Virus record (IMG/VR): IMGVR_UViG_3300029705_000040
Span: 38,209 to 102,208 of that record
Source of the DNA: a virus
Taxonomy: Duplodnaviria; Heunggongvirae; Uroviricota; Caudoviricetes
DNA: 64,000 nucleotides
Direction: 5' to 3' (one strand)
A program made the position numbers and the translations under genes. Of the stretch, positions 9,482 through 61,558 are shown in pieces. The notes beneath the pieces are model-generated. The model did no database searches. It was given only the letters and a program-made list of their open reading frames with translations, and was not told where the DNA came from. The stretch's first letter is position 1; every line of letters starts with the position of its first letter.

Positions 9482-9510
9482 TTGATTTATTATATAAGAA
9501 AATATATAAT
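9482..9510 (+). promoter_or_regulatory. sigma70-like promoter TTGATT-N17-TATAAT (copy 4)
   Basis: TTGATT 9482-9487, TATAAT 9505-9510. Confidence 0.55.
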
Positions 9511-9542
9511 AATAATATAAAATATCTGATGAGGTTAAAGTT

Positions 9543-10056: not shown

Positions 10057-10161
10057 GTAAGACTATTCACTTAAGTAGAGAGGAAAATCTCACTTAGAAA
10101 TATAGATTTTGATATTATCAGTAAAGGTAATACCAGATAGGTGAAAAGCCTATCAAAACAT

Positions 10162-10237
10162 GCGCCTGTAGCTCAGGTGGTAGAGCACGTGACTTTTAAT
10201 CACGGTGTCCCGAGTTCGAGCCTCGGCAGGCGCACCA
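10162..10237 (+). tRNA. tRNA-Lys (TTT)
   Basis: Acceptor GCGCCTG/CAGGCGC-A-CCA, D GCTC/GAGC, anticodon CGTGA-CTTTTAA-TCACG. Confidence 0.9.
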
Positions 10238-10255
10238 AAATCACAGAGGTGTGTT

Positions 10256-10441
10256 ATGAGTAAAATTATGGAAGAACTTAATAGAATTTCTTTATTAGAA
10301 TCTATGTGTAAAAATCCTGTTACTGTAGATGCTATTAATAACTCTTATAAAGAAGATGCTGATGATAGTTTCGGTATTTTCGATACACCTGAAGAAGCTT
10401 TTGCAGCTATGGAAGAGAGTTGGAAAAATGAAAAAAATTGA
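10256..10441 (+). CDS. Small acidic protein; candidate antitoxin of the downstream RelE/YafQ-like toxin
   Basis: 61-aa ORF starting after the tRNA (track ORF trimmed); overlaps the toxin start by 14 nt. Confidence 0.4.
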   Translation: MSKIMEELNRISLLESMCKNPVTVDAINNSYKEDADDSFGIFDTPEEAFAAMEESWKNEKN

Positions 10442-10727
10442 GCTTAAAAAGTAGTTTACCAAAGATTTTGAAAAGTTATCAAAAACTGGTAAAATCGATA
10501 AGAAAAGTTTTTCTAATATAATTAATGATATAGCTGCTGGAAAACCTCTTGATCAAAAATATAGAGATCACGCTTTAGCTAAGCACTCTCCAAAAGAACT
10601 ATAGGGCTGTAGAGACTTCCATTATAAAAGCAATATATGTGTTGTTTATAAAGTTTTAGATGATTTAATTCAGCTTATAAGGATTGGAAGTCATCAAGAT
10701 CTAGGATTAACTGAGGATTTAAGATGA
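10428..10727 (+). CDS. RelE/YafQ-family type II toxin, 99 codons including 2 in-frame TAG
   Basis: Verified frame ATG 10428 to TGA 10725. Only internal stops are TAG at 10452 and 10602. Motifs ...KDFEKLSK..., DHALAKH, CRDFH, VVYKV..LIRIGSHQDL match YafQ/RelE. The first TAG aligns with Q of E. coli YafQ SGQYSKDV. Confidence 0.6.
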
Positions 10728-11383
10728 CCGATTTAGAAATATTTATACAAAACAATCAAGAATTAATCGATCTAAATACTAAAGAAAGCTGGATAGAAAT
10801 TTATGATTTGTTTGAAAGCTCTTATTATGATGATTATCTAGCTGGAGAATTAAGCAAATTATTAATTGATATTAATGCAGATCCATGTCATATAATCGGT
10901 TTTGTTCCTAGAAGATTTTTAATGGGTCAAAGCGATTTAACTAAATATGAAATACCTAAAAATGCATCTTATATAGGAATGAGTGCTTTCGAAGATACAG
11001 CTTTAGAAGAAGTATATATACCAGAAAGTGTTAGAGAGCTAGATTTCTTATGTTTTTCAGGAACTAAATTAAAAAAAGTATTTATACCGGATACTGTGCA
11101 TAGAATAGCAAATGGGGTATTTCATTCTTGCTTAAATCTAGAAGAAGTATTGATTGGTAAAGTATCGGAATTGGGCGAAGATGTTTTTGCTAATTGTGAG
11201 AATTTAACAAAATTAATTATTTGCGATAGTGTATCTCAACTTGATTCTAGCATTGTTAAAGGTTGTAAATCACTAAAAGAAATCGATTTTTTAGGAACGA
11301 TCGAAACATTTGAAAAGATTCGAGTAGGTTATACAGAATCATCTATAAAAATAAAATGCATAGATGGTGAAATTTCTTGGTAA
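10724..11383 (+). CDS. BspA-type leucine-rich repeat (LRR_5-like) protein
   Basis: Repeats of the form IP.SV..I...F..C..L..V.I across 219 aa; ATGA overlap with the toxin stop. Confidence 0.65.
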   Translation: MTDLEIFIQNNQELIDLNTKESWIEIYDLFESSYYDDYLAGELSKLLIDINADPCHIIGFVPRRFLMGQSDLTKYEIPKNASYIGMSAFEDTALEEVYIPESVRELDFLCFSGTKLKKVFIPDTVHRIANGVFHSCLNLEEVLIGKVSELGEDVFANCENLTKLIICDSVSQLDSSIVKGCKSLKEIDFLGTIETFEKIRVGYTESSIKIKCIDGEISW

Positions 11384-11480
11384 AATAATTAAAAATTAAG
11401 AAATTAGTCCTGTATAAATAATTGTTAAAAGAAAAACATTTAATTTAAGAAATTTTTACGCTAAATTAAATGTTATAAAT

Positions 11481-11565
11481 GCTGGTGTTCCCGTAGTGGC
11501 CAACCGGAACGGATTTGTAATCCGTCGCGAAAGCTTCGTGAGTTCGAATCTCACCACCAGCTCCA
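11481..11565 (+). tRNA. tRNA with anticodon TGT (Thr ACA?) but an 85-nt type II-like architecture
   Basis: Acceptor GCTGGTG/CACCAGC-T-CCA, anticodon ACGGA-TTTGTAA-TCCGT, extra hairpin CGAA-AGC-TTCG in the variable region. Confidence 0.5.
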
Positions 11566-11645
11566 GACGTCGAAATCAAAAGTAGACAAACAGATACGTT
11601 ATCTCAGAAATAATCTGTATAAACTATAAGAGATAACATAAAAAT

Positions 11646-11719
11646 GCCTCGATGGCTCAGCGGTAGAGCAGTCGCCTAGTAAGCGACAGGTCGTCGGTTC
11701 AAATCCGACTCGAGGCTCC
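11646..11719 (+). tRNA. tRNA with anticodon AGT (A34; Thr ACN reader?)
   Basis: Acceptor GCCTCGA/TCGAGGC-T-CCA, D GCTC/GAGC, anticodon GTCGC-CTAGTAA-GCGAC. Confidence 0.6.
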
Positions 11720-11727
11720 ACAATATA

Positions 11728-11804
11728 TTGGGGATTCGCCAAGCGGTAAGGCACGGGATTTTGATTCCCGCATTTCGGGTGTTCGAATCACTCATCCCCA
11801 GCCA
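11728..11804 (+). tRNA. tRNA-Gln (TTG)
   Basis: Acceptor TGGGGAT/ATCCCCA-G-CCA (U1-A72 as in bacterial Gln), anticodon CGGGA-TTTTGAT-TCCCG. Confidence 0.8.
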
Positions 11805-12101
11805 CCAGTGTATATATTTTTCATGAAATAAGTCTTATATATACATATATGGATAGAGACTTTGTCGGAGATATTACAACGGGTATACCCATAAGGGTGA
11901 GAGCATAAGAGTTAAACCGGCTTATTGCGAACCAGTGAACTTACGGACACAGAACGGTAACTGTAGGGAACGTAGGTAGACAACGAGTTCACTCCCTAAA
12001 GAACTAATGACCGATGCTTAGTATAATTAGTAGTACTTTCCCTTTCCTGGGAGAAACATCAGTGCAATTCTGGTAGTATCGACTTAATTAAGGAAAAACA
12101 A

Positions 12102-12290
12102 ATGATTTCACTTATTCTATTATTTCTTGAACTGATATATTTATATGTATATTATATCGTAAAAAGTAAAAGTATAGAGAAGTCACTAATGTATATAGAT
12201 AATTATATTATAAATGGTAGAAAACTTCTCACTAATACTGGTTTAGAAATTATTAGAAGTAGAGTAAATTCTAAAAGAAGTAAATTTTAA
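12102..12290 (+). CDS. Small hydrophobic protein, 62 aa
   Basis: ORF with AGGAAAAA RBS. Confidence 0.4.
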   Translation: MISLILLFLELIYLYVYYIVKSKSIEKSLMYIDNYIINGRKLLTNTGLEIIRSRVNSKRSKF

Positions 12291-12300
12291 TGAGGTGTTT

Positions 12301-12669
12301 ATGTATTCGCATCTAAATGAGCAATTATTGCTAGAGATGGCTGAAATTGGTCGTATTGATGGATATAAGATACTAATTTATGGCAGTGAAGGACCTACAC
12401 AACATTTTCATGTAGAAAATAAAGAAAAGAAAATATCAAGTTGTGTAAAAATTTGTGAAGATGGTTATTTTAGTCATGGAACACATAAAGATACTTTAGA
12501 TAATAAATTAGTTAAAAAATTAAAAGAATTTCTTAATGCTCCTCATAAATTTTTTGGAAAACATGGTTATACTAATTGGCAAATAATTTGTATTTATTGG
12601 AATGATAATAACCCAGATTATTTAATTGATTTAGATACAGTTAAGATGCCTTTGTATAATAATTTATAA
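12301..12669 (+). CDS. Hypothetical protein, 122 aa
   Basis: ORF; GAGG at 12292-12295 precedes ATG 12301. Confidence 0.55.
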   Translation: MYSHLNEQLLLEMAEIGRIDGYKILIYGSEGPTQHFHVENKEKKISSCVKICEDGYFSHGTHKDTLDNKLVKKLKEFLNAPHKFFGKHGYTNWQIICIYWNDNNPDYLIDLDTVKMPLYNNL

Positions 12670-12747
12670 TTTTGAAATATTGCTCTGCTGGCTGTTTTTA
12701 GTATCAATTGATTCAGGACTAAAACTGCAACTGGAGCCTTATATTAT

Positions 12748-12822
12748 GGTGGGTTCGTATATCGGTTAGTACACAGCACTGTCACTGCTGAAGGACGGGT
12801 TCAACTCCCGTACCTACCGCCA
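12748..12822 (+). tRNA. tRNA-Asp (GTC)
   Basis: Acceptor GGTGGGT/ACCTACC-G-CCA, anticodon CAGCA-CTGTCAC-TGCTG. Confidence 0.8.
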
Positions 12823-13187
12823 TAAAACAACAGTAAGTCCAATACTTAGTAGGCTACGTAGTACTTTGATTGGCTAGTTGTTAAGTATTCGTAGTTCGTC
12901 GAAATAAAACAAACGAATTAACCGTAAGTAACGGCGAGCGAAAACGGTTAGCCAGTAGTAAGGACAATCTTGCGAAGGCACAACTGATACATATGACAGC
13001 TTCATATGTCGTAGCATAGAAAAAGTGCTCATGATGTTTTACGTAAAGTTACATCCACTGAATTCGCTCATCTAATGAGCAGCTAGTAACACTTACTTTT
13101 GATAACAGAGAACAAATAGATATTGAAACCCAGTGTTACAAATTACTTTATAAACAGCTATTGAAACTTACTTTTATCAAATTATTC

Positions 13188-13272
13188 TGCAGGGTAGCTC
13201 AGTAATCGTTAAAGAGCGCTAATCTTTGCTAAGATTAGAGGTCGTTGGTATGAAATCCATCCCCCGCCGCCA
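13188..13272 (+). other. Aberrant tRNA-Ala(TGC)-derived element with an 8-nt anticodon loop
   Basis: D-arm TAGCTCAG...GAGCG and variable AGGTC match E. coli tRNA-Ala. Anticodon stem CTAATC/GATTAG has loop TTTGCTAA (8 nt). T-loop TATGAAAT (8 nt). Acceptor TGCAGGG/CCCCGCC has 2 mismatches. G-CCA encoded. Confidence 0.4.
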
Positions 13273-13404
13273 TTTAACAGTTTCAAAATTCTGTATTAAG
13301 AATAGAGCTATTATTACTTACTTTTTGAAATGGTTATTATAGGTTCGATTCCTATACTGAGCCTTAGGCTTAGTTGTTAGTAATATAACTTATCTATTCT
13401 ATAT

Positions 13405-13481
13405 AGCTGGGTAGAGCAGTCAGGTAGCTCGCTAGGCTCATAACCTAGAGGTCCAGGGTTCGAATCCCTGCCAAGCAACCA
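13405..13481 (+). tRNA. tRNA-Met or Ile2 (CAT), with A1:A72 mismatch (initiator-like feature)
   Basis: D GAGC/GCTC, anticodon CTAGG-CTCATAA-CCTAG, T CAGGG-TTCGAAT-CCCTG, CCA. Confidence 0.65.
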
Positions 13482-13531
13482 CTCTGCGTTTTTGGCTAGT
13501 CTTCGCGAAGAAAAATAAACTAGCATAATAT

Positions 13532-13608
13532 TGGGGCGTAGCGCAGTTTGGTAGCGCGCCTGATTTGGGATCAGGAAGTCGTGGGTTCAAGTCCCGTCGC
13601 CCCAACCA
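13532..13608 (+). tRNA. tRNA-Pro (TGG)
   Basis: Acceptor TGGGGCG/CGCCCCA-A-CCA, D GCGC/GCGC, anticodon CCTGA-TTTGGGA-TCAGG (G37). Confidence 0.85.
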
Positions 13609-13856
13609 CACCAATTAACAATTATAAAACATATTTTGTACTTGTTAATTTGAGATGTACCTATAATAGGGTCGCTACTGTTGCAGCAGTAGGAAAACAA
13701 CATAAAGCGTAGTATTAAAAGAACGATTAATTAAAATAGATGCACACGGTAGCGCGCCAAAAGGCTCAGTTATAATGGTATTGAGAGACGTGGGTTTCAC
13801 TTGGAGAATCGGGAGGGTGAACGCTTTATTTTATATATTTTTAGTTGAATAATGAA

Positions 13857-13986
13857 GGTGCCACGAAGGATCTAATACCGTAACCAGTCGGTTCCTCATG
13901 TCCATATAACGCCTTTAAACTAAGGGGGTTGGAAACAGGGTTGGATTGTAAAAATAGCTGTGGTAAATGGAATGTGATGAACAGCC
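13857..13986 (+). repeat. Structured non-coding element, copy 1 (GGTGCCACGAAG...AGCTGTGGTAAATGGA..GATGAACAGCC)
   Basis: Shares its 5' 12-mer and a ~45-nt 3' block with 14296-14381. Confidence 0.5.
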
Positions 13987-14295
13987 TTTAATTATAAATA
14001 AAATAGCTGATGTACTAGTGTACAAACAGTTTCTCAGGTCGATTCGGAATCGGCTTGTGCATAAACAATTCTCTTAGGCTTACTATTGTTCGGAACTTTA
14101 GTAGCACACTTAAGAGCTTAGAGAAGTCATTGTTTGTAAGTGGAAAGATAATACGCACGTATTAAATCAAGACTCATTTTCAATAAAAGAAACTTACCAC
14201 ACCACTAACTTATTTTTAATTACCGCGGGAATCATTATTAAGTTGAGTGGAAATTTGAATTTAAGCATTTCAACAATTCAATAATCCCTATAGAC

Positions 14296-14381
14296 GGTGC
14301 CACGAAGCCGGCTGACAAGCCGAGGGGTCGCGTTGGATCTGTATAACAGCAGCTGTGGTAAATGGAGCGAAATGAACAGCC
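14296..14381 (+). repeat. Structured non-coding element, copy 2
   Basis: GGTGCCACGAAG...GTTGGATCTGTATAACAGCAGCTGTGGTAAATGGAGCGAAATGAACAGCC. Confidence 0.5.
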
Positions 14382-14716
14382 GTTAATATATTTTTTATAA
14401 GGGAGACTATTGAGATGTTTGGAATGGATCAATGGAATTTTCTTGCATATGCTTTATTAATTAATTATATGGAAGAAAATAAAAAGCTATTTGGAAGGAT
14501 TTGAGCAACTATCTTTCCAAAATATGGGCCGTTATATCATGTTAGCAGATTACCTGATTTGCACTCAGGAGGCGACCGGGGCAGCACCGGTACGGTCCAC
14601 CAGAACTAAATATAAGGTAGCAAAAGAAGTCATGAGCTTTTGAGATAACAATACTACTATTATTGAGCTTAAATTTAGTATATCGCAAATATTTTTCATA
14701 GTAGGAGAAATTATAA

Positions 14717-15643
14717 ATGCAAAGTTTTCAATGTATATGTGGAAAAATTTTTTCATCTAAACATGCTTTAAGCGGGCATCACAGTCATTGCGTAGAATAT
14801 TTAACTAATATTGGAAGATTACACATACGGCAATAGGTGGATGCTACAAATGGAGCTAAAAGTGGTGCTACACTAAAAGCAAAAAGCATAGAAAGAAAAG
14901 CGGCTAATATGCTAGCTTGGGTATAGCAGTAGAATACATGTGAAAAATGTGGTAAGATTATGCTTGAGAAATTTGGATCTGGTAGATTTTGCTCCAGAGC
15001 ATGTGCTAATAGTCATGTGAAACATGGAAAATATACAAACGAAAACGTAAAAAATAGAAAAACAAAGTCAAATAAAAAATCACACAATCAACTACTTAAA
15101 GAGTATATTTTAAGTCCACCGAAATGTTTGATTTGTGGTAAAACTCTTGCATATGAGAAACGTGCTAGAAAAACATGTTCAAAAAATTGTTGTAGTAAAT
15201 ACCTCTCGAAGTAGAAAAAAGATCTAGTTGAAAAAGTTGGCGGTAACTTAAATCAATATGGTACGCGAGGTCACGCTAGATATGGTACATATAAGGGGTT
15301 TCACTGCGATTCTTCTTATGAGCTCGCGTTCGTAATATATTGTCTAGATCATAATATTATATTTTAGAGAAACCATAAGGGATTTTCTTATAATTTTCAA
15401 AATAAAAATTATAAATATTATCCAGACTTTATTATAAATGATAAATACATAGAAATAAAAAATTACAAAAGCGATCGCGTTATTGCTAAGACTAATTAGT
15501 TTCCAATAGATAAGATTTTAGTAATTCTTTATTTATCTGATATAAAAATCTGTATAGATTATTGTATAAAGGTTTATGGTAAAAATTTTACTGAACTCTA
15601 TGATAAAGATAAACCATCATGGATGGATAAGAAAAATAGTTGA
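14717..15643 (+). CDS. PD-(D/E)XK/C2H2 freestanding nuclease, paralog 2; contains 6 in-frame TAG codons
   Basis: Verified frame ATG 14717 to TGA 15641. Only internal stops are TAG at 14834, 14924, 14930, 15212, 15365 and 15497. The C-terminus FHCDSSYELAFVIYCLDHNIIF*RN...YYPDFII...EIKNY...PSWMDK aligns with 1533-2306, and the TAG sits at the same column. Confidence 0.6.
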
Positions 15644-15681
15644 TGCAGATGCCGCGTGTTCGACTCACGTCAGCTCCACCA
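15640..15681 (+). other. tRNA 3'-half-like fragment overlapping the nuclease stop
   Basis: GCGTG-TTCGACT-CACGT + CAGCTCC-A-CCA; no matching 5' half found in the window. Confidence 0.3.
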
Positions 15682-15782
15682 TTAAATCGAATACAGGTAC
15701 TTGCGAGATGTTATACTGTTGTAAGCAGTGTTTAATAACAGTGTTAACAACAATATAACATTTTCCTGTATATTTAATAAAT

Positions 15783-15858
15783 GTGGGTGTAACTCAATTG
15801 GTAGAGTGCTAGCTTGCCAAGCTGGATGTTGCGGGTTCGAACCCCGTCACTCACTCCA
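15783..15858 (+). tRNA. tRNA-Gly (GCC)
   Basis: Acceptor GTGGGTG/CACTCAC-T-CCA, D ACTC/GAGT, anticodon CTAGC-TTGCCAA-GCTGG. Confidence 0.8.
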
Positions 15859-15983
15859 GGCCATATGTGCAAATGATTAGAAATAACCAGTGATGGCTCC
15901 AGAGATGTTTTATGGTTGAACTCATATAATAAAAACCATTATCGCCTTTATAAGTAATGCACATTGCGAAAATGAGGCTACTG

Positions 15984-16059
15984 CGAGAGTTATATCAATT
16001 GGGAGATAAGCTGCCTTACAAGCAGAAGGTTACAGGTTCAAGTCCTGTACTCTCGACCA
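15984..16059 (+). tRNA. tRNA-Val (TAC)
   Basis: Acceptor CGAGAGT/ACTCTCG-A-CCA, D TATC/GATA, anticodon loop CTTACAA. Confidence 0.8.
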
Positions 16060-16410
16060 TTAGGAAAACTACAACGGGATAGGAGACCCCCGCTACAGAG
16101 ATAACCAATGCATTCGTTGAAAAATACGTGTCATCTAGAGTTGAGTTGGTGAGTGGGAGGGCACAGAGCTAAACGATAATATGTTAAAGTAAACTGTTGA
16201 TACTTATTATTTTATGCTCCGAGACAGTGTGGTCGCAAGACGTGACATCTTAAGTGCAGAGGTATGTGGATGTTGTAGCAGATTAGGGTTTAGATGCATC
16301 CGAGAATTGGGTTTGCCCTAATCAAGTATGGGGTTGCTGGTGTAACGTTAGCACGACAGATTGTGGCTCTGTAAGACTAAGTTAGATTCTTAGGCTTCCC
16401 ACCATTAAAT

Positions 16411-16497
<87 letters not shown>

Positions 16498-16597
16498 AGA
16501 TTGTTTAGTTTCTGTGTTATACTTTTTATCAAACTTATACATAATATATATGTAGAAGATAATTCTTCTAAAATATTTTAAGTGAGGTATAAGAAAC

Positions 16598-16969
16598 ATG
16601 GACAACAAAAAAGAAACTCAAACTCAAGAAACATCATTTAGAGGAATTCCCATTCCTGAAATTGAAAAGAAGCATGATTATAAAGTAGCTGATTCTCAGA
16701 AAGTTATCGATAAGATAATGGCTATGTCTCCAGAAGAACAGAAAACAGTTACTCTTGAAAGCATCCATTACGAAGATAAAGAAATTAGCGAAGTAAAGCT
16801 CTCTACTGGTGATATTATTCCTGTAGAAGCTGCTATTGCACTTGCTGAAAGTAAATTATTAAATGGATTTAGAGCTGGTAGAAATGCTAGAGGCGACCGC
16901 ACTTTAAGAGCTACCCCTAATTATGCTGGTAAGGAAAAGAATTCTATCCACAAATTACCTGTATTCTGA
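16598..16969 (+). CDS. Hypothetical protein, 123 aa
   Basis: ORF with GAGG RBS; TGA stop. Confidence 0.65.
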   Translation: MDNKKETQTQETSFRGIPIPEIEKKHDYKVADSQKVIDKIMAMSPEEQKTVTLESIHYEDKEISEVKLSTGDIIPVEAAIALAESKLLNGFRAGRNARGDRTLRATPNYAGKEKNSIHKLPVF

Positions 16970-17012
16970 GATGAAAGGCTAGAGGAATATAATTTCTCTA
17001 GTTTACATATAA

Positions 17013-17089
17013 GCCTTCGTGGCTCAACTGGTTAGAGCGACCGGTTCATACCCGGTAGATTGGGAGTTCAAGTCTCTCCGAAGGCACCA
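17013..17089 (+). tRNA. tRNA-Met (CAT), elongator-like
   Basis: Acceptor GCCTTCG/CGAAGGC-A-CCA, anticodon ACCGG-TTCATAC-CCGGT. Confidence 0.8.
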
Positions 17090-17165
17090 GCAGGTATAGT
17101 GTAACGGATTAGCACATCAGACTACGGATCTGATAATATGGGTTCGAATCCTATTACCTGTACCA
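17090..17165 (+). tRNA. Second tRNA-Arg-like (ACG; loop CTACGGA)
   Basis: Acceptor GCAGGTA/TACCTGT-A-CCA, anticodon TCAGA-CTACGGA-TCTGA; directly abuts the previous tRNA. Confidence 0.6.
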
Positions 17166-26536: not shown

Positions 26537-26572
26537 AATACATAATTACATTAAAGCGAGGATTATTTAATT

Positions 26573-27424
26573 ATGATTTTTATTTATAAACTAATGTTTC
26601 CGAATAATAAAGTTTATATAGGGTAGACAAATAATTTAGATATACGTTGGATAAATGGTGGTAAGGGGTATAAAAGGTGTCCATACGTTTGGAATGCTAT
26701 ACAAAAATACAGCTGGACTGCTATAGAAAAAAGTATTCTAGAAGTCTGCAATGACAGGGATGAAGCTAATACTAAAGAAGTTTACTGGATAGCAGCATAC
26801 AATTCAGCTGATTATAGATTCGGTTATAATATCTAGTCAGGTGGAAAGTATAGAGAACGTAGTCCAGAAGCGAATGCACGAATTAAAGAGAAGAATTCTA
26901 ACAAAATTGTAAGCGAGGAAACTCGTAAAAAGATATCAAAAGCTAATAAAGGTAAAATAAGATCAGCTGAGTATAGAGAAGCTCAATCAAACAGATTGAA
27001 AGCTTACTATCGAATGCATGAGTCAAAATCTAAAGGTAAACCTGGTCATAAGACAAAGGGTTGCTTAGGCTAGCATTGGTATAATAATGGAAAGATATCA
27101 ATTCTATGTTTTGAAGACCAAATTCCAGATGGATATGTAAAAGGAAGAATTAATGTTAAATCAGGCTATAAAATGTCTGAAGACATTAAGCAAAAATATT
27201 CTTAGAGCCATAAAGGTAAGCACATAGGAAAAAACAATAGCAATGCGAAAGCTGTTGTTAAATTAGATTTAAGTTATAATTTTATAGAAAAATATGATAC
27301 TATAAAAGAAGCTTCTGAAGCAAATAATAATATTAGCGGGATTGGGGCCTGTGCACATTACAGACAGAAATCAAGCGGAGGGTTTATTTGGAGATTTTAT
27401 GATGAATGGAAAGATACAAAATAA
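26573..27424 (+). CDS. GIY-YIG homing endonuclease with NUMOD3-like repeats; 4 in-frame TAG codons
   Basis: Verified frame. IYKLMFPNNKVYIG*TNNLDIRW, GYNI*SGG, SEETRKKISKANKGK, GCLG*HWYNNG, KYS*SHKGK; TAG at 26624, 26834, 27071, 27203; TAA 27422. Confidence 0.7.
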
Positions 27425-46230: not shown

Positions 46231-47460
46231 ATGTTAAATGCAAGAGGTGTGCGTGAGCTCGCATATGTTGTGCAAGTAGATTCTGTAGAATCTATGGTTG
46301 GCTATGATAGTCTTGAAATAGCTACAGTAAACGGTTGGAAATGTGTAGTCGGAAAGGGATCTATGAAAGCTGGTGACCTAGCTATATATTTCGAAATTGA
46401 TTCTAAGCTTCCTGATGTTGAACCCTTTAATCTTAATTCTGCTTTAGTAAAATATAAGTTCAAGATTAAGACTCAACGTTTTGGTAGAGGTGGTATTCCT
46501 TATATCTCTCAAGGTTTGCTTATGTCTCTAACCGAATTTGGTGATAAGTTAAAGAATATTAAACTAGGCGATTTCCTAACTGAAAAACTTAATATTACAT
46601 ATTACGAAGTAGAAGATAATACTAGAAAAGCTAATAAAGATAAGTATACTTCCATGAGGGACCGTCATAAGAAGTTTTTCAAGACGAAGTTTGGTAGATG
46701 GCTCATGCGCCATGAGTTTACTAGAAAGATTTGTTTCCTATTCTTAGGTAAGAAGAAGGATAAGAAGACGGATTGGCCTAACTGGGTAGTTAAAACTGAT
46801 GAGGAAAGATGTCAGAACTGCTTTAATCAGATGAAGGCACTCAATAAGAAGTGGTTAACTACTGAAAAGATCGATGGTTCTTCTGCTACATATACGATGA
46901 AAAATACTAGAAATAAGAAAAATCGTGAGATGCTTGTCTGCTCTAGAAATGTTGTTTTCAACGCACCAGAAAAAGAAGCTAGAAATTTCTATAAAGATAC
47001 TGATGGTAACATTTGGCTAGAAATGGCTGCGAAGTATGATATGAAAACTGTTTTAGAAACTATTTTAGATAACGATCCTAATCTAGAATTTGTAACAATA
47101 CAGGGCGAAGTTTATGGCGGAAAGATTCAGAAGAGAAATTATGGTCCTGAGCATAGACTTGCTATTTTCAATGTCATACTTAAGCAAAATGGAAAAGCTC
47201 CAGTTCGTATGAATCCTGTTGAAATGGAAAATTACATTTTTGATCTCAATAGTAAGTATGAATTTAATCTAACAACAGTTCCTGTGTTAGAATCTGGGTT
47301 TGAACTTCCTGAAACTGTTGAGGAACTTTTGGAAATAGCTACTGGAAATTCTGTTATAGATGGTGGTCCTAGAGAGGGTATTGTTTTACGTACAGAAGAT
47401 GGTGTAAACAGTTTCAAAGCTGTTTCGAACCAATTCTTGTTAGATTTCCATAACAACTAA
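46231..47460 (+). CDS. ATP-dependent RNA ligase-like nucleotidyltransferase with an N-terminal OB/tRNA-binding-like domain
   Basis: Nucleotidyltransferase motif I, KIDGSS; N-terminal AYVVQVDSVESMVGYDSLEIATVNGWKCVVGKG resembles tRNA-binding OB folds. Confidence 0.65.
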   Translation: MLNARGVRELAYVVQVDSVESMVGYDSLEIATVNGWKCVVGKGSMKAGDLAIYFEIDSKLPDVEPFNLNSALVKYKFKIKTQRFGRGGIPYISQGLLMSLTEFGDKLKNIKLGDFLTEKLNITYYEVEDNTRKANKDKYTSMRDRHKKFFKTKFGRWLMRHEFTRKICFLFLGKKKDKKTDWPNWVVKTDEERCQNCFNQMKALNKKWLTTEKIDGSSATYTMKNTRNKKNREMLVCSRNVVFNAPEKEARNFYKDTDGNIWLEMAAKYDMKTVLETILDNDPNLEFVTIQGEVYGGKIQKRNYGPEHRLAIFNVILKQNGKAPVRMNPVEMENYIFDLNSKYEFNLTTVPVLESGFELPETVEELLEIATGNSVIDGGPREGIVLRTEDGVNSFKAVSNQFLLDFHNN

Positions 47461-47473
47461 AAAAAATTATTAG

Positions 47474-47505
47474 AGAATCAGCTAGAAATAGTTGATTCTT
47501 TTCTT
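47474..47505 (+). terminator. Hairpin (AGAATCA/TGATTCT) + T-run overlapping the -35 of promoter copy 12
   Basis: Inverted repeat 47474-47480 / 47493-47499. Confidence 0.4.
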
Positions 47506-47520
47506 TATTTATCATATAAT
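47492..47520 (+). promoter_or_regulatory. sigma70-like promoter TTGATT-N17-TATAAT (copy 12)
   Basis: TTGATT 47492-47497, TATAAT 47515-47520. Confidence 0.55.
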
Positions 47521-47539
47521 AATATAGAGGAATAAGATT

Positions 47540-47959
47540 ATGTTTAAATTGCTTACGGATTCAGAAAAAATAGATGTTCAAAATACTATTTTAAATGTTC
47601 AAGAGCTTATTACTAAAACAAAAGAGACTAAACTTTATGATAATTTAATAGATGCAGTAGAATGCATGCAATTATTATTAAGTTTGGTGATTAAAAGCGA
47701 AAAAATGCTGACAGAAGCTATTGATCCAGATACTAAAACAAACTATTCTGTAAAACTTTCAGAAGAAGATATTTGGGACCTTCTAGAAAGTGATGAGTTG
47801 TGTAATAATGAAATTGGTCTAAATTACATAGATGAGCTTCCAACTAGCATCGATACTATAAGTAGATTGAGAGAAATTAAAATGAAAAATGTATATCTAC
47901 AAAAAGACTTAGAAGATCTTATGTATGATATGATTGCGAGGTTATTATATGTCGAATAA
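47540..47959 (+). CDS. Hypothetical protein, 139 aa
   Basis: AGAGGA RBS. Confidence 0.55.
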   Translation: MFKLLTDSEKIDVQNTILNVQELITKTKETKLYDNLIDAVECMQLLLSLVIKSEKMLTEAIDPDTKTNYSVKLSEEDIWDLLESDELCNNEIGLNYIDELPTSIDTISRLREIKMKNVYLQKDLEDLMYDMIARLLYVE

Positions 47960-48407
47960 ATATATGGAATTAGCTAGGAAAAAAGCTTTAGAAACTAGCC
48001 AGAATAATATTGGTGGCCCCTTCGGTTGCTGCATAGTTAAAGATGGTAATGTTATTTGCGTGGCTTCTAACTCAGTTATAAGAGATAATGACCCAACTGC
48101 TCATGGTGAAATAAATGCTATCAGAGAAGCTGGTAAAATTTTAGGTACATATGATTTAAGTGGTTGCGAATTGTTCACTTCGTCTTACCCATGTCCTATG
48201 TGCTTATCCGCTATTATTTGGGCAAACATTAAAAAAGTATATTATGGTTGCACTGTTAAAGATGCTGAACAAATCGGTTTTAGAGATGATTTTATCTACA
48301 ACTATCTGCAAAATGGTGGTGACATAATTGATCTAGAAGAGGTAGATCGAGCTGAATGCTTAAAAGTCTTTGAAAAGTATCTTTTTGAAAACAAAACTAT
48401 TTATTGA
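47949..48407 (+). CDS. CDA-fold zinc deaminase, closest to guanine deaminase GuaD
   Basis: NIGGPFGCCIVKDG...NDPTAHGEINAIREAG...CELFTSSYPCPMCLSAIIWANIKKVYYG...GFRDDFIY is nearly collinear with B. subtilis GuaD. Confidence 0.8.
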   Translation: MSNKYMELARKKALETSQNNIGGPFGCCIVKDGNVICVASNSVIRDNDPTAHGEINAIREAGKILGTYDLSGCELFTSSYPCPMCLSAIIWANIKKVYYGCTVKDAEQIGFRDDFIYNYLQNGGDIIDLEEVDRAECLKVFEKYLFENKTIY

Positions 48408-49177: not shown

Positions 49178-49375
49178 ATGATCGAATATAGAGAATTAGA
49201 ACGTGATGGTCATTGCAGTTTATGTGGTGATGCTATTAAGAAGAATGAAACAAAAACTACTATTGTGCATTTTTATCACAGAAGTAAAAATCCAAAAGTA
49301 AATATTTGTAGAGAGTGTGCATATAAAATTTTTTATGCACCTAGTTTAGTAGATGAGGAAGGTATTGTAGAATGA
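49178..49375 (+). CDS. Small zinc-ribbon protein
   Basis: CSLCG...CREC. Confidence 0.45.
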   Translation: MIEYRELERDGHCSLCGDAIKKNETKTTIVHFYHRSKNPKVNICRECAYKIFYAPSLVDEEGIVE

Positions 49376-49893
49376 AAAGTATAAGACGAGGCACATTTGA
49401 AACAAACAGTAGTTCGAGTCATTCCATTTCAATTGTTGACTCAGAGTTAGTAGAATCAGAATTAAATTTAGTTGACCCTTGGGAAATTGATTACTGTGAT
49501 GACCTTGATTACAACAAACAATATGTAATGATTGATTTTCATGAGTATTGTGGCTGGGATGATCACGAAAGTCAAGAAGATAGACTAGCCCTTTGTATAC
49601 AACAATTAGTAGCTGAATTAGATCTTGATTTCTGGTGTGTTAGCAATGAAAAGTGGTATGAAAATATCAAAAAGTTGTATGAGAGTGAGAAGTTTCAAGA
49701 AATTAGTGACGAAATTGCTGATTATGTTGGTAGTCATTGCGGTGGTGTAAGAATTCGAGAACTTTCTGAAGGATATATTGACCATGATAGTGATTACGGT
49801 AGTTATGATAATTTTATGAGCTGTAATGGTCTTGATTTAGTTTGCTTTGTGTTTGCTAAAGAAGCTTATGCTCATTTTGAGTTCAATGGTTAA
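49372..49893 (+). CDS. Paralog family member A (conserved N-terminus MKSIRRGTFETNSSSSHS)
   Basis: Shares its first 18 residues with 50376, 50623, 51187 and 51574; acidic, divergent C-terminus. Confidence 0.6.
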   Translation: MKSIRRGTFETNSSSSHSISIVDSELVESELNLVDPWEIDYCDDLDYNKQYVMIDFHEYCGWDDHESQEDRLALCIQQLVAELDLDFWCVSNEKWYENIKKLYESEKFQEISDEIADYVGSHCGGVRIRELSEGYIDHDSDYGSYDNFMSCNGLDLVCFVFAKEAYAHFEFNG

Positions 49894-49907
49894 TCAGAGG
49901 TAATGAA

Positions 49908-50111
49908 ATGGATTTATTTGTTGAAATAATTGAAAATGCAACTGAGCCATGGGAAGAAATTAAATGCGAAGAATGCGGAACGGTCATTCGATTTCATCCT
50001 CTCAAAGCGATGAAAAAATGTGAGTACATAGAAAATGGTTACTATCATATAAATGAATGCATTGATTGTCCGAAATGTTACCACACTGTTTTGAGATATC
50101 CGAAGAACTGA
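49908..50111 (+). CDS. Small zinc-ribbon protein
   Basis: CEECG...CPKC. Confidence 0.4.
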   Translation: MDLFVEIIENATEPWEEIKCEECGTVIRFHPLKAMKKCEYIENGYYHINECIDCPKCYHTVLRYPKN

Positions 50112-50128
50112 TGGAGTAAAAATAGATT

Positions 50129-50395
50129 ATGACGAAAATTAACAAAAAGAAACTAGCTTTTGAAATACTTTATATTATATTTAATAGCCTCACATTCTTT
50201 TTTATTGGCGGCGGTATCGGTAGTTTGATCATAACAGCTTGTACAGGTGATCCAATGACTACATATGCATATATATGCTGTTATGGAGCGTTTCCTGCTA
50301 CATGTTTTAGAGCCATTTTTCAACGGTTAGATAAGAATCAAGAACGGTACATAGAAGATAGGGAGGAAAATTTAAATGAAAACAGTAAGGAATAA
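50129..50395 (+). CDS. Small membrane protein
   Basis: Hydrophobic. Confidence 0.4.
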   Translation: MTKINKKKLAFEILYIIFNSLTFFFIGGGIGSLIITACTGDPMTTYAYICCYGAFPATCFRAIFQRLDKNQERYIEDREENLNENSKE

Positions 50396-50621
50396 TACAT
50401 TTGAAACTAACTCATCATCCACACATTCTTTCGCTATCAGAAGGGGAAGTGATAACTGGGAGGAACTACATAAAATATTTGATACTATCTTATATGGCGA
50501 CTCATTACATAATATTGATGGTGTTGATGATATTTATGACGAAGAAGGCTTGCTTAAATTACTTAAATTATTAAACGAAGCACAAACAATTCTTATAGAA
50601 GGAACGGAGGATTGGGATTAA
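50376..50621 (+). CDS. Paralog family member B (MKTVRNNTFETNSSSTHS)
   Basis: Conserved N-terminal motif. Confidence 0.55.
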   Translation: MKTVRNNTFETNSSSTHSFAIRRGSDNWEELHKIFDTILYGDSLHNIDGVDDIYDEEGLLKLLKLLNEAQTILIEGTEDWD

Positions 50622-50622
50622 A

Positions 50623-51141
50623 ATGATTACCATTAGAAAAAATACTTTTGAAACAAATAGCAGCAGCACTCATAGCATTGTGATTCCTAAGAATGTTGAT
50701 AATAAAAAAGATTTTACTAAATCTATACACTTTGGATTAGGTGAATTTGGTTGGAGTAGAGATGTTGCTGATCCAGCTGATTACTTATATACGGCTATTT
50801 GTGATGCTTATTTAGATAGTTATTATACTGCTGAACATCAAGAAAAAGGAAAAGTATACTTACAAAAAATAAAAGATATTCTCGAGAAAAATGGTATCAC
50901 ATATGAATTCGAAGAGGTAAAAAATGGGCCTTATAATTATTTTTATGTAGATCACTGCAGTGAGTTAGATACTTTTATAGAAAGGGTCTGTAATGATGAG
51001 GACCTTCTCTTGAGATATCTTAAGTATGGTACAGTTTATACTGGTAACGATAATGATGATTATGATGAAAGCTATCACTACTTCGATGCTTACCATGAAC
51101 TAGATCCAGAAAATTATGATTACTTCTATAAATCTAATTAA
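50623..51141 (+). CDS. Paralog family member C (MITIRKNTFETNSSSTHS)
   Basis: Conserved N-terminal motif; acidic Tyr-rich C-terminus. Confidence 0.6.
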   Translation: MITIRKNTFETNSSSTHSIVIPKNVDNKKDFTKSIHFGLGEFGWSRDVADPADYLYTAICDAYLDSYYTAEHQEKGKVYLQKIKDILEKNGITYEFEEVKNGPYNYFYVDHCSELDTFIERVCNDEDLLLRYLKYGTVYTGNDNDDYDESYHYFDAYHELDPENYDYFYKSN

Positions 51142-51186
51142 ATATTTCAAAAACCTCTGTATATAATTATATATGGAGGTTATTTT

Positions 51187-51558
51187 ATGTTTACTATTAG
51201 AAATAGTACATTTGAAACAAACTCAAGTTCAACGCACAGTATAGTAATTGGTACAGAAAAGCAGTTCGAAGATTGGCGAGCAGGTACGCTTTTATATAAA
51301 CATTACGCATGGTCATCTGATAAACTCGAAAAGGGTTTTTATACATTAGAAGAATTGAAGCAATATCTAATAGATGATGGCGAGTATACAAAAGTAGATA
51401 TCGAAGCTATGGATCAAGATGAGCTTTTAGATATTCTGAGAGAAGATGATATTGTTGACTATGATAACTGGTATGAGAATCTTGAGCATGATACTCATAC
51501 ATACACAACAGCTAGCGGTGAAAAGATTGTCATCGAATGTGCTTATGGTTACGATTGA
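51187..51558 (+). CDS. Paralog family member D (MFTIRNSTFETNSSSTHS)
   Basis: Conserved N-terminal motif. Confidence 0.55.
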   Translation: MFTIRNSTFETNSSSTHSIVIGTEKQFEDWRAGTLLYKHYAWSSDKLEKGFYTLEELKQYLIDDGEYTKVDIEAMDQDELLDILREDDIVDYDNWYENLEHDTHTYTTASGEKIVIECAYGYD

Positions 51559-51573
51559 TATGGAGGAATAACT

Positions 51574-51936
51574 ATGATAAGTATCAGAAGAAATACTTTT
51601 GAAACTAACTCTTCTTCTACTCATTCTTTATCTGTTGTTAACAAAGAAGATTGGGAAAAATTTAAAGCTGGCGAGCTTTATTTCGCATCAGATAATTATG
51701 ATTTAATCAGTAAGGAAGATGTCATTGAACTAGATGCTTTCGAAGATAGCTATCCAGAATTTAAAGATCAGCCAGAAGATGTTAAAAAATATTTAATTGA
51801 AAAATTTATAAAAGATAATTGCGACGGAGAATACGCACCTATATACTCTTACAGATATCTTGATCCACCTTTCAAAATTGTTTATGATAAAAATGGAAAT
51901 GAGATGGTAGCTTTTTCATTCTATTTTTATGGCTAA
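51574..51936 (+). CDS. Paralog family member E (MISIRRNTFETNSSSTHS)
   Basis: Conserved N-terminal motif. Confidence 0.55.
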   Translation: MISIRRNTFETNSSSTHSLSVVNKEDWEKFKAGELYFASDNYDLISKEDVIELDAFEDSYPEFKDQPEDVKKYLIEKFIKDNCDGEYAPIYSYRYLDPPFKIVYDKNGNEMVAFSFYFYG

Positions 51937-52046: not shown

Positions 52047-53344
52047 ATGGCAGGTAATAATTCTATACAACTTCTGCGTGGTAGTTCAACTGCTAGAAAA
52101 GCTAGCACTGAAAAATTGCTCTCCGGTCAACCTTTCTACGAAACAGATACAAATTTGTTTTATGTAGGGGGGGGGGCAACTTAAGCTCTGCTACACCTAT
52201 TAAGGTTAGCACTCTCACAATCTAGAGAAATGGTACAACTGTTGGTACCTTTAATGGTTAGACAGCTCAAACTATTAATATCTAGGATACTGATACTAAC
52301 ACAGACTTAAAAACAGCATCAGGAAATACTTCAAGCAAAATCTACTTAATTGGTGCTACTAGCCAATCTAGTTCTGGTCAAACAACATACTCTCATGATA
52401 CAGCATATGTTGGAACAGATGGTTGTTTATACAGTAATAGTAGTAAGGTTGCTGTAAGAACAGAAGTACCATATATTTTAAAAGATAACTCTTATTTAGT
52501 TATTTATAAAAACGATTCTTCTACATTAGAGTCAAATTGTATATATACAAATTATCCATCATACACAATAACTTTTAATGCGAATGGTGGCAGCTGTTCA
52601 ACAACATCGAGTAAGACATTTAGAGGAAAATTATCTAGCTTACCTACACCCACTATGAGTGGTGGTACATTCTTAGGTTGGGGCACGTCATCTTCTGCAA
52701 CTAGCTATGTAAGCTCTAGCAAAGTTTATAGCTCTAACACAACACTTTATGCTATTTGGAAAATTGATAGTACATCAAGTGGATCAGGTAACGATTATGA
52801 AGGTACTTATCAGTTAATAGATGATGAAAGTCCACAAAACGTGTTAGCTACTGATGATTATGTTATCATAGCCGGCACCACATCATCTGACAGTATGTTA
52901 TATTTTATGGGTAATGATTTTTCTGGTAATTATCCATATAACTATTCTTTAGATCCTTCTGACCAACTAACTTTAGATGGCTCTAGCAGTATAGCTATAT
53001 TTAAAGTTACTTATAACGATGGTTAGATAGCTTTACAACTTGCAAATGGTGAGTATTCAGGACAATATTTAGCAAATACTTCGAATAAATATTTAAAACT
53101 TCAATCAGATGAATGTTTTTGGGATATCTCAGAACATGGGTCTCCAGCGTACGGCGGTTTGCAAGTTGGTTCTAATAGAACCAAGCTCATATGTCAGGAC
53201 ACAGGCAACCTTATAGTAGTTCCTACTAGTATGCAAGCTAATAGCAACAACAGCTATAGTACAACATTCTCGTGTTATACTAATCCAAGTAGTAGTTATC
53301 TTGATACGACTCAAATATTCAGGCTGATCACAGATTCTAACTAA
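52047..53344 (+). CDS. Tail-fibre-like receptor-binding protein with Listeria-Bacteroides repeat domain. Reading frame interrupted twice near the 5' end and carrying 4 in-frame TAG codons
   Basis: N-terminus MAGNNSIQLLRGSSTARKASTEKLLSGQPFYETDTNLFYVGGG (typical tail-fibre N-terminal motif) in frame 0 up to the G9 tract 52167-52175. Body from 52184 to TAA 53342 lies in frame +2 (…KVSTLTI*RNGTTVGTFNG*TAQTINI*DTDTNT…ITFNANGGSCSTTSSKTFRGKLSSLPTPTMSGGTFLGWGTSSSATSYVSSSKVYSSNTTLYAIW…) with no ATG before 52655. TAG at 52223, 52259, 52283 and 53024. Removing one G from the G9 tract and one T from 52198-52201 would restore a single frame. Confidence 0.55.
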
Positions 53345-60087: not shown

Positions 60088-60267
60088 ATGAGATACGATA
60101 AATATAGAATTCTTAAGCAAGGTAAAGACTTATGGGTGATTATTGAGCCTAGCAGACAGCTTACGTTGTATGATGAAAATAATAAGTTATTGCATTTTAC
60201 TACAAAAGAATCTGCTTTAAAATATTGTGCAGATAATAATCTAGAAGTAGGTGAGGAATATGTTTGA
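60088..60267 (+). CDS. Hypothetical protein, 59 aa
   Basis: ORF. Confidence 0.4.
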   Translation: MRYDKYRILKQGKDLWVIIEPSRQLTLYDENNKLLHFTTKESALKYCADNNLEVGEEYV

Positions 60268-61558
60268 GGAATTAATTAAAGAATATACTTGCTTAAAAAC
60301 AGAAGCAGAATTTTCTGTTAGATTTGCTAACATGTTACAAAGTTTGACCTGCGCATTAAATGAAAATAATAAGAATGATGTAAGTTATTATACTAGAAGA
60401 AGCAAAGAGCTTTTGGAAGGTACTAGAGTTCCTATCCAGGTTCCTATGTTTGAAATCAGTAATACGCATCCTGATTTTGCATGGCTTACAAATGCTCTCG
60501 AATCTGTTATTAGTTCTGAAATGTGGCACCCTATGGTTAGTGCTAACGTAGGTTATGAGTATAGAAAGATTGTAAATCATTGGTATGATTTAACCTGTGA
60601 TGATTCTGCACCCAGAAGAAAAGCATTAGGTGATTTCTCTATGAGAGGTCAAGAATGTAGACACAGTGCTTATAAATCAAGCGCTGGTTGGTTGTTATCT
60701 CACGTAAACACTGCTACTGTTCCTGCAATCCCTTATCTCGAACAATATTATAATGCAGATTGTACTAAAGAAGAAGTTGGTTTTGGATCACCTAGTACTG
60801 AGCATTCTGTTATGTGCTCAAACTTCGCAGTAGATGGTGATGAAATCACAATGGTTAAACGCCTTCTTACTGAAAAATATCCTAACACTTCTTTCTCAAT
60901 GGTTTCAGATAGTTATGATTATTGGAATTTAGTTTGCAATATTCTTCCTAAATGCAGAAAAGAAATAGAAGAACATAATGGATGCTTACTAGTTAGAGGT
61001 GATAGCGGTGATCCAGTAGATGTTGTAACTAAAACAGTATTTCAATTAGGTGAGCTTTTTGGTTATAGCGTAAATAGTAAAGGCTATAAAGTTCTCAATC
61101 CTAAAGTGAAAGCTATTTATGGCGATTCTATTACAGTGACTAGAGCTGCTCAAATCTATGAAATTTTATATAAAAATGGTTGGGCTGCTAGCAATGTAGT
61201 ATTAGGTGTTGGTAGTTTCTCAATGCAATGTCTTGAGGGTGAAAATGGTAAATTAAATCCTTTTACTAGAGACACTTTTGGTATTGCTATTAAAGCAACG
61301 CATGTGCTTATGAAAGATGGAACTGAACATTTTGTATTTAAGAATCCTAAAGAAGGTGGATTTAAAAAGTCACATAAAGGTTGCTGTTTAGTTATTAATG
61401 ATGGTGGCGAACTTATTTGCAATGATGAACATAAATTTGTAGAAACATACTCAGTGTTAAACGAAATGAAAGTAGTGTTTAAAGATGGTAAGATGGTTAA
61501 AGATCAGAGCTTGAAAGAAATTAGAGACAGATTGTGGGACAATAAATTCTATGAGTAA
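60260..61558 (+). CDS. nadV: Nicotinamide phosphoribosyltransferase (NAMPT/NadV-like)
   Basis: SPSTEHSVM, SMVSDSYDYWN, LLVRGDSGDPVDVV, KAIYGDSIT, VLGVGSF are collinear with NAMPT blocks; GAGG precedes ATG 60260. Confidence 0.8.
   Translation: MFEELIKEYTCLKTEAEFSVRFANMLQSLTCALNENNKNDVSYYTRRSKELLEGTRVPIQVPMFEISNTHPDFAWLTNALESVISSEMWHPMVSANVGYEYRKIVNHWYDLTCDDSAPRRKALGDFSMRGQECRHSAYKSSAGWLLSHVNTATVPAIPYLEQYYNADCTKEEVGFGSPSTEHSVMCSNFAVDGDEITMVKRLLTEKYPNTSFSMVSDSYDYWNLVCNILPKCRKEIEEHNGCLLVRGDSGDPVDVVTKTVFQLGELFGYSVNSKGYKVLNPKVKAIYGDSITVTRAAQIYEILYKNGWAASNVVLGVGSFSMQCLEGENGKLNPFTRDTFGIAIKATHVLMKDGTEHFVFKNPKEGGFKKSHKGCCLVINDGGELICNDEHKFVETYSVLNEMKVVFKDGKMVKDQSLKEIRDRLWDNKFYE

Follow-up and report, generated by a model that had tools for sequence, protein, structure and literature searches.

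What does it mean when five neighbouring phage genes encode proteins that open with the same peptide and then go separate ways? The question is raised by a stretch of 64,000 nt of Caudoviricetes DNA, called the window here (positions 38,209 to 102,208 of IMG/VR record IMGVR_UViG_3300029705_000040), in which five open reading frames (ORFs) on the plus strand, p1 to p5, share the start M-x-[ST]-[IV]-R-x-x-T-F-E-T-N-S-S-S-[ST]-H-S. A sequence-only reading had drawn attention to this array and proposed that the peptide is a targeting or processing signal, or a common interaction module, on otherwise unrelated small proteins. Here we show that the family to which p1–p5 belong is genomically and phyletically coupled to one dedicated clade of radical S-adenosylmethionine (SAM) enzymes, and we tentatively favour the reading that the peptide is the place where this enzyme docks or acts.

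The array was recovered as described. In the window, which has a G+C content of 31.8%, a degenerate DNA pattern for F-E-T-N-S-S-S-x-H gave five matches compared to none in 100 dinucleotide-preserving shuffles, and a six-frame scan of the window found no further copy of the motif beyond p1–p5 (Table 1). A GGAGG-type ribosome-binding site lies before each of the five genes. When the 18 motif codons were compared copy against copy, amino-acid identity was 13–16 of 18 while third-position identity was 6–12 of 18, and the motif serines are encoded by both AGY and TCN codons. The low third-position identity and the mixed serine codon families indicate that the motif is conserved at the protein level, in agreement with the selection proposed from the sequence alone. 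The same reading had called most of the tails strongly acidic and rich in Tyr and Asp; all five proteins are acidic (isoelectric point, pI, 4.2–4.6; net charge −10 to −26) and p1, p3, p4 and p5 are Tyr-rich (6–12% Tyr), with 2.5% Tyr in p2. A p5 identical to ours is present on at least 24 contigs from several samples, so the array itself is stable; p2 keeps its length in four independent contigs, and a protein 99% identical to p1 (P0121) is encoded on a 75-kb Joint Genome Institute (JGI) contig. A megablast of the array locus against phage records gave no match.

All ORFs around the family loci were clustered for a neighbour analysis; many of the loci counted here and below come from related phages (the reciprocal set consists of close relatives), and the counts are not independent events. 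A protein of ~300 aa with a C-x3-C-x2-C motif was present in 71 of the first 82 loci, at a median gap of 33 bp to the nearest family gene, its gene lying mostly directly downstream of a family gene on the same strand. An independent set made up of GTDB loci and phage Ma-LMM01 had the gene in 48/58 loci; overall it is present in 119/136. The gene just upstream of it belongs to a single subfamily of short proteins (SF0, the subfamily of p4) in 77 loci, and the distance is 400 bp or less in 61 of these. The reciprocal test, with loci chosen by the radical-SAM gene alone, found the family in 76/78 and a family gene within 400 bp upstream in 68. The sequence-only reading had suggested looking for the motif in other phages, and among 50,697 phage records proteins of the p3 type were found in 24 (15 Lak megaphages and 9 Microcystis phages), with the radical-SAM clade occurring in the same 24 plus one weak unrelated match. 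Anywhere from 1 to 10 family paralogs accompany a single radical-SAM gene; in Ma-LMM01 the order is gp130 (family), gp129, gp128 (radical SAM).

Assignment of the partner to the radical-SAM enzymes comes from several comparisons. Its match to Pfam PF04055 (Radical_SAM) is borderline, with 29.4 bits for the copy in one IMG/VR locus (L017) and 26.1 bits for the copy of this phage against a cut-off of 29.5, while its matches to phrog_16999, annotated 'Fe-S oxidoreductase', have E values from 4e-38 to 6e-122. C48, C52 and C55 are invariant in the alignment of the clade, which also has a conserved N-terminal segment of ~40 residues, Y-x-N-G-N...D-G-T-K-I-R-E. The alignment contains no conserved Cys beyond the N-terminal cluster region, and so no cysteines of the SPASM or twitch type; Pfam and NCBIfam scans for SPASM and for PqqD, the ribosomally synthesised and post-translationally modified peptide (RiPP) recognition element (RRE), gave no match to the partner. 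Profile matches in the PDB to SuiB, SkfB and PqqE are confined to the cluster-binding segment. The partner is a divergent radical-SAM protein with no solved relative past the cluster-binding stretch.

No radical-SAM gene was found in the 64-kb window. A 308-aa member of the radical-SAM clade, sharing 54% identity with the one from another IMG/VR locus (L002), is encoded on contigs that have identical copies of window genes and run co-linear with the window, and its gene at L145:13503-14429 extrapolates to window coordinates ~65,053–65,979, which is ~13.1 kb downstream of p5 and ~1 kb past the window end. A tail-fibre-like gene, small ORFs, a nicotinate phosphoribosyltransferase (NAPRTase) gene and a nicotinamide adenine dinucleotide (NAD) synthase gene lie between the array and the radical-SAM gene. 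The usual order of long form, short form and radical SAM is therefore retained in this phage, with an insertion splitting it. Immediately upstream of the array (window 46231–48407) are an RNA ligase (PF09414 plus a PHA02142 OB domain) and a dCMP/cytidine deaminase, which places the array in a nucleic-acid metabolism module. Arrays of the family sit among replication and nucleotide-metabolism genes, including DNA methylases, a PurA/PurZ-like gene, dCMP deaminase, RNA ligase and NAD salvage genes.

How widely the motif occurs, and where in the protein, bears directly on what it may do. Among 1.84 billion representatives, a 36-residue profile of the five N-termini matched 5,136 clusters at 50% identity (E ≤ 0.001). 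The motif falls within residues 1–36 in 148 of the 150 best representatives, and in 132 of these 148 the Phe follows the start Met at a distance of exactly 8 residues. The two exceptions in position were traced to a miscalled start and to two adjacent family genes read as one (P0203), and an apparent fusion of a family protein to the radical-SAM protein in one locus (L094) proved spurious, arising from an overlapping frame that starts with GTG. Neither fusions to other domains nor recognisable extra domains turned up. With variability judged on paralogs picked independently of the search pattern, R5, E10, T11, N12, S13, S14 and H17 are invariant, F9 can be replaced by Y, and S15 by A, T or M. 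The resulting motif, M-x-x-[IV]-R-x-x-x-[FY]-E-T-N-S-S-(S)-x-H, is the only element invariant across all subfamilies of a family whose proteins have 81–173 aa here and 80–320 aa overall.

None of the scans placed the family in a known group. Pfam, NCBIfam and PADLOC scans of p1–p5 and of representatives of seven other subfamilies gave nothing above threshold, PHROGs scans of the same set yielded only the unannotated phrog_28997, and searches of PDB sequences with single proteins and with the family profile returned noise and no homologue. The sequence-only reading had not recognised the motif as a described family and had allowed that it might prove to be the N-terminus of a known enzyme family that has diverged; no Pfam, NCBIfam or PDB match to any member scanned points that way, and no description of the motif string, the family or its link to radical SAM was found in the searchable literature. 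A broader literature search returned only radical-SAM work on thymidine hypermodification, which concerns a different enzyme clade. Prior traces of the system consist of two PHROG clusters that are unannotated or generically annotated, and the link between them is new. One of these clusters, phrog_28997, is matched by p3 over residues 2–172, covering profile positions 4–165 of 165 (E 2.2e-14); p1, p2, p4 and p5 match it over residues ~2–25 only (E 9e-4 to 0.04), leaving p3 the sole strict member. The other, phrog_16999, is matched by the partner, and PHROGs gives neither a function nor a link between the two. In a survey of 185,579 prokaryotic species with one genome per species, 57 family loci were found, nearly all on contigs of phage-like size in metagenome-assembled genomes from gut and rumen; since these loci are so few and so placed, we regard the family as essentially viral.

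AlphaFold models of p3 (43-sequence alignment; predicted local distance difference test, pLDDT, 82.6; predicted template modelling score, pTM, 0.82) and p5 (15 sequences; pLDDT 83.3; pTM 0.72) show defined sheets and helices in both proteins. The least confident parts of these models are the invariant N-termini, residues 1–12 in p3 and residues 1–5 and 10–13 in p5, both models being otherwise confident, and the first core β-strand begins at S15/T16. This is what would be expected in a model of a peptide that becomes ordered only on a partner.

The tails beyond the motif had been described as unrelated and completely diverging, and this did not hold. Over 90 residues p4 and p5 are 33% identical (E 3e-11), and p1, with its internal motifs E-Y-C-G-W and G-Y-I-D-H, has the G-W, Y and [IV]-D-H landmarks of the long type in common with p3, which carries GEFGW, YLYTAI, Y-V-D-H, TGNDN and a C-terminal YFYKSN and is a homologue of Ma-LMM01 gp130. 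Homologues of p3 (298 of 160–200 aa) have G-E-F-G-W, Y-L-Y-T-A-I, G-Y-I-D-H, T-G-N-D-N and a C-terminal Y-F-Y-K-G-N as invariant or near-invariant positions spread over the whole chain. When the motif was cut off 210 motif-bearing proteins from 80 IMG/VR loci, BLASTP still placed the tails in two large groups, one long (134 proteins, including p1 and p3) and one short (50, including p4 and p5), with p2 alone an orphan. Conserved polar residues of the long type are D110 (90%), Y54 (88%), D143 (84%) and H111 (79%), and the globular domain of the long type resembles that of an enzyme or a ligand-binding protein. The short type conserves W30, G33, E97 and a C-terminal V-A-F-G-Y-Y-G-Y-D-G; p4 has D-W-R-A-G after the motif and ends in G-E-K-I-V-I-E-C-A-Y-G-Y-D. 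Short forms have no conserved polar residue outside the motif, which they retain perfectly. An hhalign comparison of long tails with short tails was not significant (probability 0.2%) and we do not claim homology of the two types; the alignment of the short V-A-F-G-Y-Y-G-Y with the long h-x-F-x-x-G-E-F-G-W is merely suggestive.

Clustered more finely, 360 proteins taken from 139 loci fell into subfamilies that mostly occur once per locus: SF0 (short, including p4; 92 proteins in 85 loci), SF1 (p3-like; 62 proteins in 61 loci), SF2 (p1-like; 52 proteins in 51 loci, grouped with the p1 tail) and several more. At this level p5 and p2 are singletons, and p2 is probably a degenerate short member. 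Orthologues of p1 that are 30–41% identical occur in IMG/VR loci L002–L007. Because the subfamilies have separate orthologues across phages, p1–p5 are old paralogs with relatives of their own in other phages and not the product of a local burst of duplication. The idea of a shared N-terminal module consequently stands in part: one common partner fits the data, but the proteins that bear the module belong to old, conserved subfamilies and are not otherwise unrelated, variable proteins. Two further subfamilies, SF9 and SF10 (167–320 aa; L116:7995-8498, L120:79-1023, L121:8001-9687, L125:7071-8963), are marked by a conserved cluster of Cys residues, C..(Y)F..GCL.(E/D)C.CG. No other family genes lie directly upstream of the radical-SAM gene in these four loci, and the Cys cluster could serve as a metal or Fe-S site provided in trans.

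Expression data are available for a relative. RNA-seq of Ma-LMM01 infection placed gp130, gp129 and gp128 in subclass B5 of the middle class, which includes replication and nucleotide-metabolism genes, whereas head and sheath genes are in the late class (PMC5780444). Of these three genes, gp130 alone has an annotated middle promoter in front of it (PMC5780444). The sequence-only reading had considered that such genes might not be expressed at all; the middle-class transcript of gp130 shows that the family is expressed, and apart from virion genes. Given the shared B5 class and the promoter before gp130 only, the family gene and the radical-SAM gene probably form an operon that is separate from the virion genes.

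Taken together, we lean, at just short of an even chance, towards the N-terminal peptide being a docking or modification site for the radical-SAM enzyme. The flexible peptide would be the common element by which a single enzyme recognises all paralogs, the enzyme would most likely modify a residue in T-N-S-S-S-x-H post-translationally, and this modification would mature several different acidic proteins produced in the middle phase of infection. We prefer this to an active-site loop of the family's own because the motif alone is common to long and short forms, because one enzyme may be accompanied by as few as 1 or as many as 10 paralogs, because the motif keeps a fixed distance to the free N-terminus with no N-terminal fusions, because the peptide is unstructured in both models, and because the gene order resembles clusters in which precursors are followed by a maturase. 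Several points weigh against it. Linkage is silent on who acts on whom. Residues D110, Y54, D143 and H111 of the long type would suit enzymes with a site of their own, to which the motif could belong. The radical-SAM protein is without a SPASM/twitch cysteine cluster and without a detectable RRE. The array lies ~13 kb from the enzyme in this phage, and the 10 kb around some p1-like genes contain no radical-SAM gene. The kinship of the phages behind many of the loci makes the counts non-independent, and low pLDDT at a terminus is weak evidence.

The main competing explanation is that the family consists of new-fold enzymes or ligand-binding proteins in which the N-terminal loop, rich in Ser, Thr, Asn, His and Arg, would itself bind phosphate, a metal or a cofactor or take part in catalysis. 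The radical-SAM enzyme would then work in the same small-molecule or nucleic-acid modification pathway without acting on the family, and the short forms would act as regulators or as subunits without catalytic activity. Anions are typically bound by R, S, T, N and H, the long type conserves G-E-F-G-W, Y54, G-Y-I-D-H and T-G-N-D-N besides the motif, the neighbourhood is rich in nucleotide- and DNA-modification genes, and SF9 and SF10 have their Cys cluster. We nevertheless consider this less likely, as the short forms keep the motif perfectly with no other conserved polar residues, 1–10 paralogs per radical-SAM gene would be unusual for a fixed pathway, and neither the strict N-terminal position with its fixed Met distance and lack of N-terminal fusions nor the disorder of the motif in both models would be expected of an internal catalytic loop. 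Much less probable is that the common 5′ ends reflect recent tandem duplication or gene conversion and that the motif has no special function; the genes are adjacent and on the same strand, but the differing serine codon families and the third positions, identical at only 6–12 of 18, rule this out, and both the separate orthologues in distant phages and a motif invariant across 5,136 clusters speak against it, leaving it next to no probability.

Packaging in the capsid was among the roles first suggested for the peptide. T4 internal proteins IPI, IPII and IPIII have a common N-terminal targeting peptide of ~10 residues ending in Glu that is cleaved by the prohead protease gp21, and prohead-protease sites are L/I-x-E in T4 and S/A/G-x-E in phiKZ-like phages, with nothing after the site having to be conserved. 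By analogy M-x-x-I-R-x-x-T-F-E would be a cleavage signal and the acidic proteins would be packaged and injected with the DNA. An h-x-E peptide of ~10 residues on small, tandem acidic proteins does resemble these signals, with small acidic neighbours as in T4, the peptide is predicted to be flexible, and [TV]-F-E at residues 8–10 is loosely compatible with a protease site. Unlike in T4, conservation runs 8 residues past the Glu; T11, N12, S13, S14 and H17 are invariant, so that the most invariant residues, T-N-S-S-x-x-H, follow the putative cleavage point and run into the core β-strand. In addition, the conserved neighbour is a radical-SAM enzyme and not a head or protease gene, gp130 of Ma-LMM01 is a middle gene where head and sheath genes are late, and the arrays sit in replication and nucleotide-metabolism modules, all of which makes capsid targeting improbable. 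A strict RiPP-like system, in which the conserved N-terminus is a leader or core and a small modified peptide is released after radical-SAM tailoring, appears very improbable: tandem genes with a conserved N-terminus and variable remainder upstream of one radical-SAM gene do have the layout of a multi-precursor RiPP cluster, but the products have 80–320 aa, confident globular folds and subfamily motifs from end to end, the neighbours include no conserved protease or exporter, and the radical-SAM protein is without SPASM and RRE features. The data neither support nor exclude the suggestion that the family is one of anti-defence or DNA-mimic effectors.

Comparison with known systems helps to place the docking or modification reading. 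Closest in logic are the radical-SAM protein maturases, that is anSME/AtsB with sulfatases, PflA/NrdG with glycyl-radical enzymes and QhpD with the gamma subunit of quinohemoprotein amine dehydrogenase, where one dedicated radical-SAM enzyme is likewise coupled genetically to folded proteins with a short invariant motif. In contrast, the family motif fits neither (C/S)-x-(P/A)-x-R nor R-V-x-G-[FWY] and sits at the extreme N-terminus; the phage partner has no auxiliary-cluster (SPASM) cysteines and shows no significant similarity to these maturases beyond the cluster-binding segment; and here the putative substrates per enzyme are many and different, and the system is phage-encoded. Maturation to formylglycine as by anSME on sulfatases was rejected, with no P or R in register in E-T-N-S-S-S-x-H-S and no SPASM cysteines. 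The glycyl-radical analogy was rejected as well, there being no R-V-x-G, the loop that glycyl-radical proteins have near the C-terminus, and no invariant Gly outside the N-terminal motif; G118 of the short type is 96% conserved and absent in p5.

Multi-precursor RiPP clusters (sactipeptide, ranthipeptide, PQQ/mycofactocin-type, and precursor arrays with one common leader) likewise place several genes in tandem before one radical-SAM gene, their products keeping the N-terminal segment while the remainder is diversified. In contrast to these, the phage proteins are globular, of 80–320 aa and arranged in subfamilies, there is no RRE, SPASM domain, peptidase or exporter, and the conserved segment includes the first core β-strand. 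RiPP precursors are short and without a globular fold, while p1–p5 have 81–173 aa and the two models reach a pLDDT of 82.6 and 83.3; the RRE and/or SPASM/twitch cysteines of a RiPP maturase are missing; and several precursor genes adjoining one maturase gene are seen across loci, with ~13 kb separating them here. Since defining features of both are absent, we file the system under neither the maturases nor the RiPP clusters.

Table 1. ORFs of the array in the window, with N-terminal motifs of the family members.
Feature	Position	Strand	Details
p1, 173 aa, long type, subfamily SF2 ('p1-like')	49372-49893	+	N-terminal motif MKSIRRGTFETNSSSSHS; pI 4.21
67-aa Cys-rich (zinc-ribbon-like) ORF, not a family member	49908-50111	+	phrog_2834 (unknown function), E 3e-5
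88-aa hydrophobic ORF, not a family member	50129-50395	+	no family match
p2, 81 aa, orphan acidic tail	50376-50621	+	motif MKTVRNNTFETNSSSTHS; singleton in tail clustering
p3, 172 aa, long-type core member, SF1	50623-51141	+	motif MITIRKNTFETNSSSTHS; full-length phrog_28997 match
p4, 123 aa, short type, SF0	51187-51558	+	motif MFTIRNSTFETNSSSTHS
p5, 120 aa, divergent short type	51574-51936	+	motif MISIRRNTFETNSSSTHS; C-terminus N-G-N-E-M-V-A-F-S-F-Y-F-Y-G

Within the array, p2 shares 20 nt with the ORF before it and stops 1 nt short of p3. The independent contigs in which its length is unchanged are L140–L143. A hairpin with a 13-bp stem (51152–51181) lies between p3 and p4 and includes the GGAGG ribosome-binding site of p4; it could be a terminator or a translational control element. 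A promoter and terminator scan found promoter-like sites at chance level. Small zinc-ribbon-like Cys-rich ORFs (58–67 aa) occur beside and inside arrays, here at 49178–49375 as well as at the position in Table 1, and recur in unrelated phages; a comparable small Cys-rich ORF lies between the family genes and the radical-SAM gene at L081:10973-11149.

Further out, a NAPRTase-family phosphoribosyltransferase (60251–61558) is followed just past the window end by the NAD synthase (L145:11859-12659), a pair that could counter host defences that deplete NAD. An adenylosuccinate-synthetase (PurA/PurZ-like) gene at L145:17565-18737, ~7 kb past the window end and 3 kb downstream of the radical-SAM gene, has a cluster that recurs in 12 other family loci and may point to a 2-aminoadenine or other purine pathway. 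The stop codons of long window ORFs are TAA in 46 cases, TGA in 22 and TAG in 1, and there are long frames broken only by TAG (52047–53344, also 1533–2306, 14717–15643 and 26555–27424). In the tail-fibre-like frame at 52112–53344 (410 codons) there are four TAGs, and its N-terminal part (52047–52184) is in another frame, reached across a G10 run at 52167–52176 that could be a frameshift site or a sequencing error. This suggests that TAG is recoded in some, possibly late, genes, and TAG recoding has been reported for Lak and crAss-like phages. The first 17 kb of the window (463–17165) hold 28 tRNA genes that cover most amino acids; a CTA (amber suppressor) anticodon is not among theirs, and any suppressor tRNA of the phage must therefore be encoded elsewhere. 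In JGI contig Ga0187907_10000175 (L142; 150,940 bp) the array is 4.5–7 kb from the contig start, as opposed to 49 kb of upstream sequence in the window, and identical genes are also listed on contigs of 0.2–1 Mb. Because the window reaches further upstream of the array than this contig, the phage genome is probably ~195 kb or larger, the size of a jumbo phage.

Extending the docking or modification reading beyond this locus, it is conceivable, though we hold it with some doubt, that large phages of anaerobic gut and rumen bacteria, Lak megaphages and Microcystis phages share a hitherto unrecognised protein-maturation system. In such a system the radical-SAM enzyme would install a new modification or protein-derived cofactor on the invariant N-terminal T-N-S-S-S-x-H of a new-fold superfamily (>5,000 clusters). 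During the middle phase of infection it would thereby activate a variable set of acidic paralogs, whether effectors or enzymes. The coupling amounts to a two-component hypothesis that is directly testable, either by co-expression of the two genes or with the enzyme and the synthetic peptide MISIRRNTFETNSSSTHSLSVV. Should the motif instead be an active-site loop of the family itself, the family would represent a new enzyme fold whose active-site loop is, unusually, strictly N-terminal. A functional coupling would mean widespread viral radical-SAM chemistry on uncharacterised proteins, with an 18-residue recognition motif and many natural substrates, and there is a substantial chance that this chemistry is new. 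Thousands of hypothetical phage proteins would then gain a function, among them those of Lak megaphages and of Microcystis phages that control blooms.

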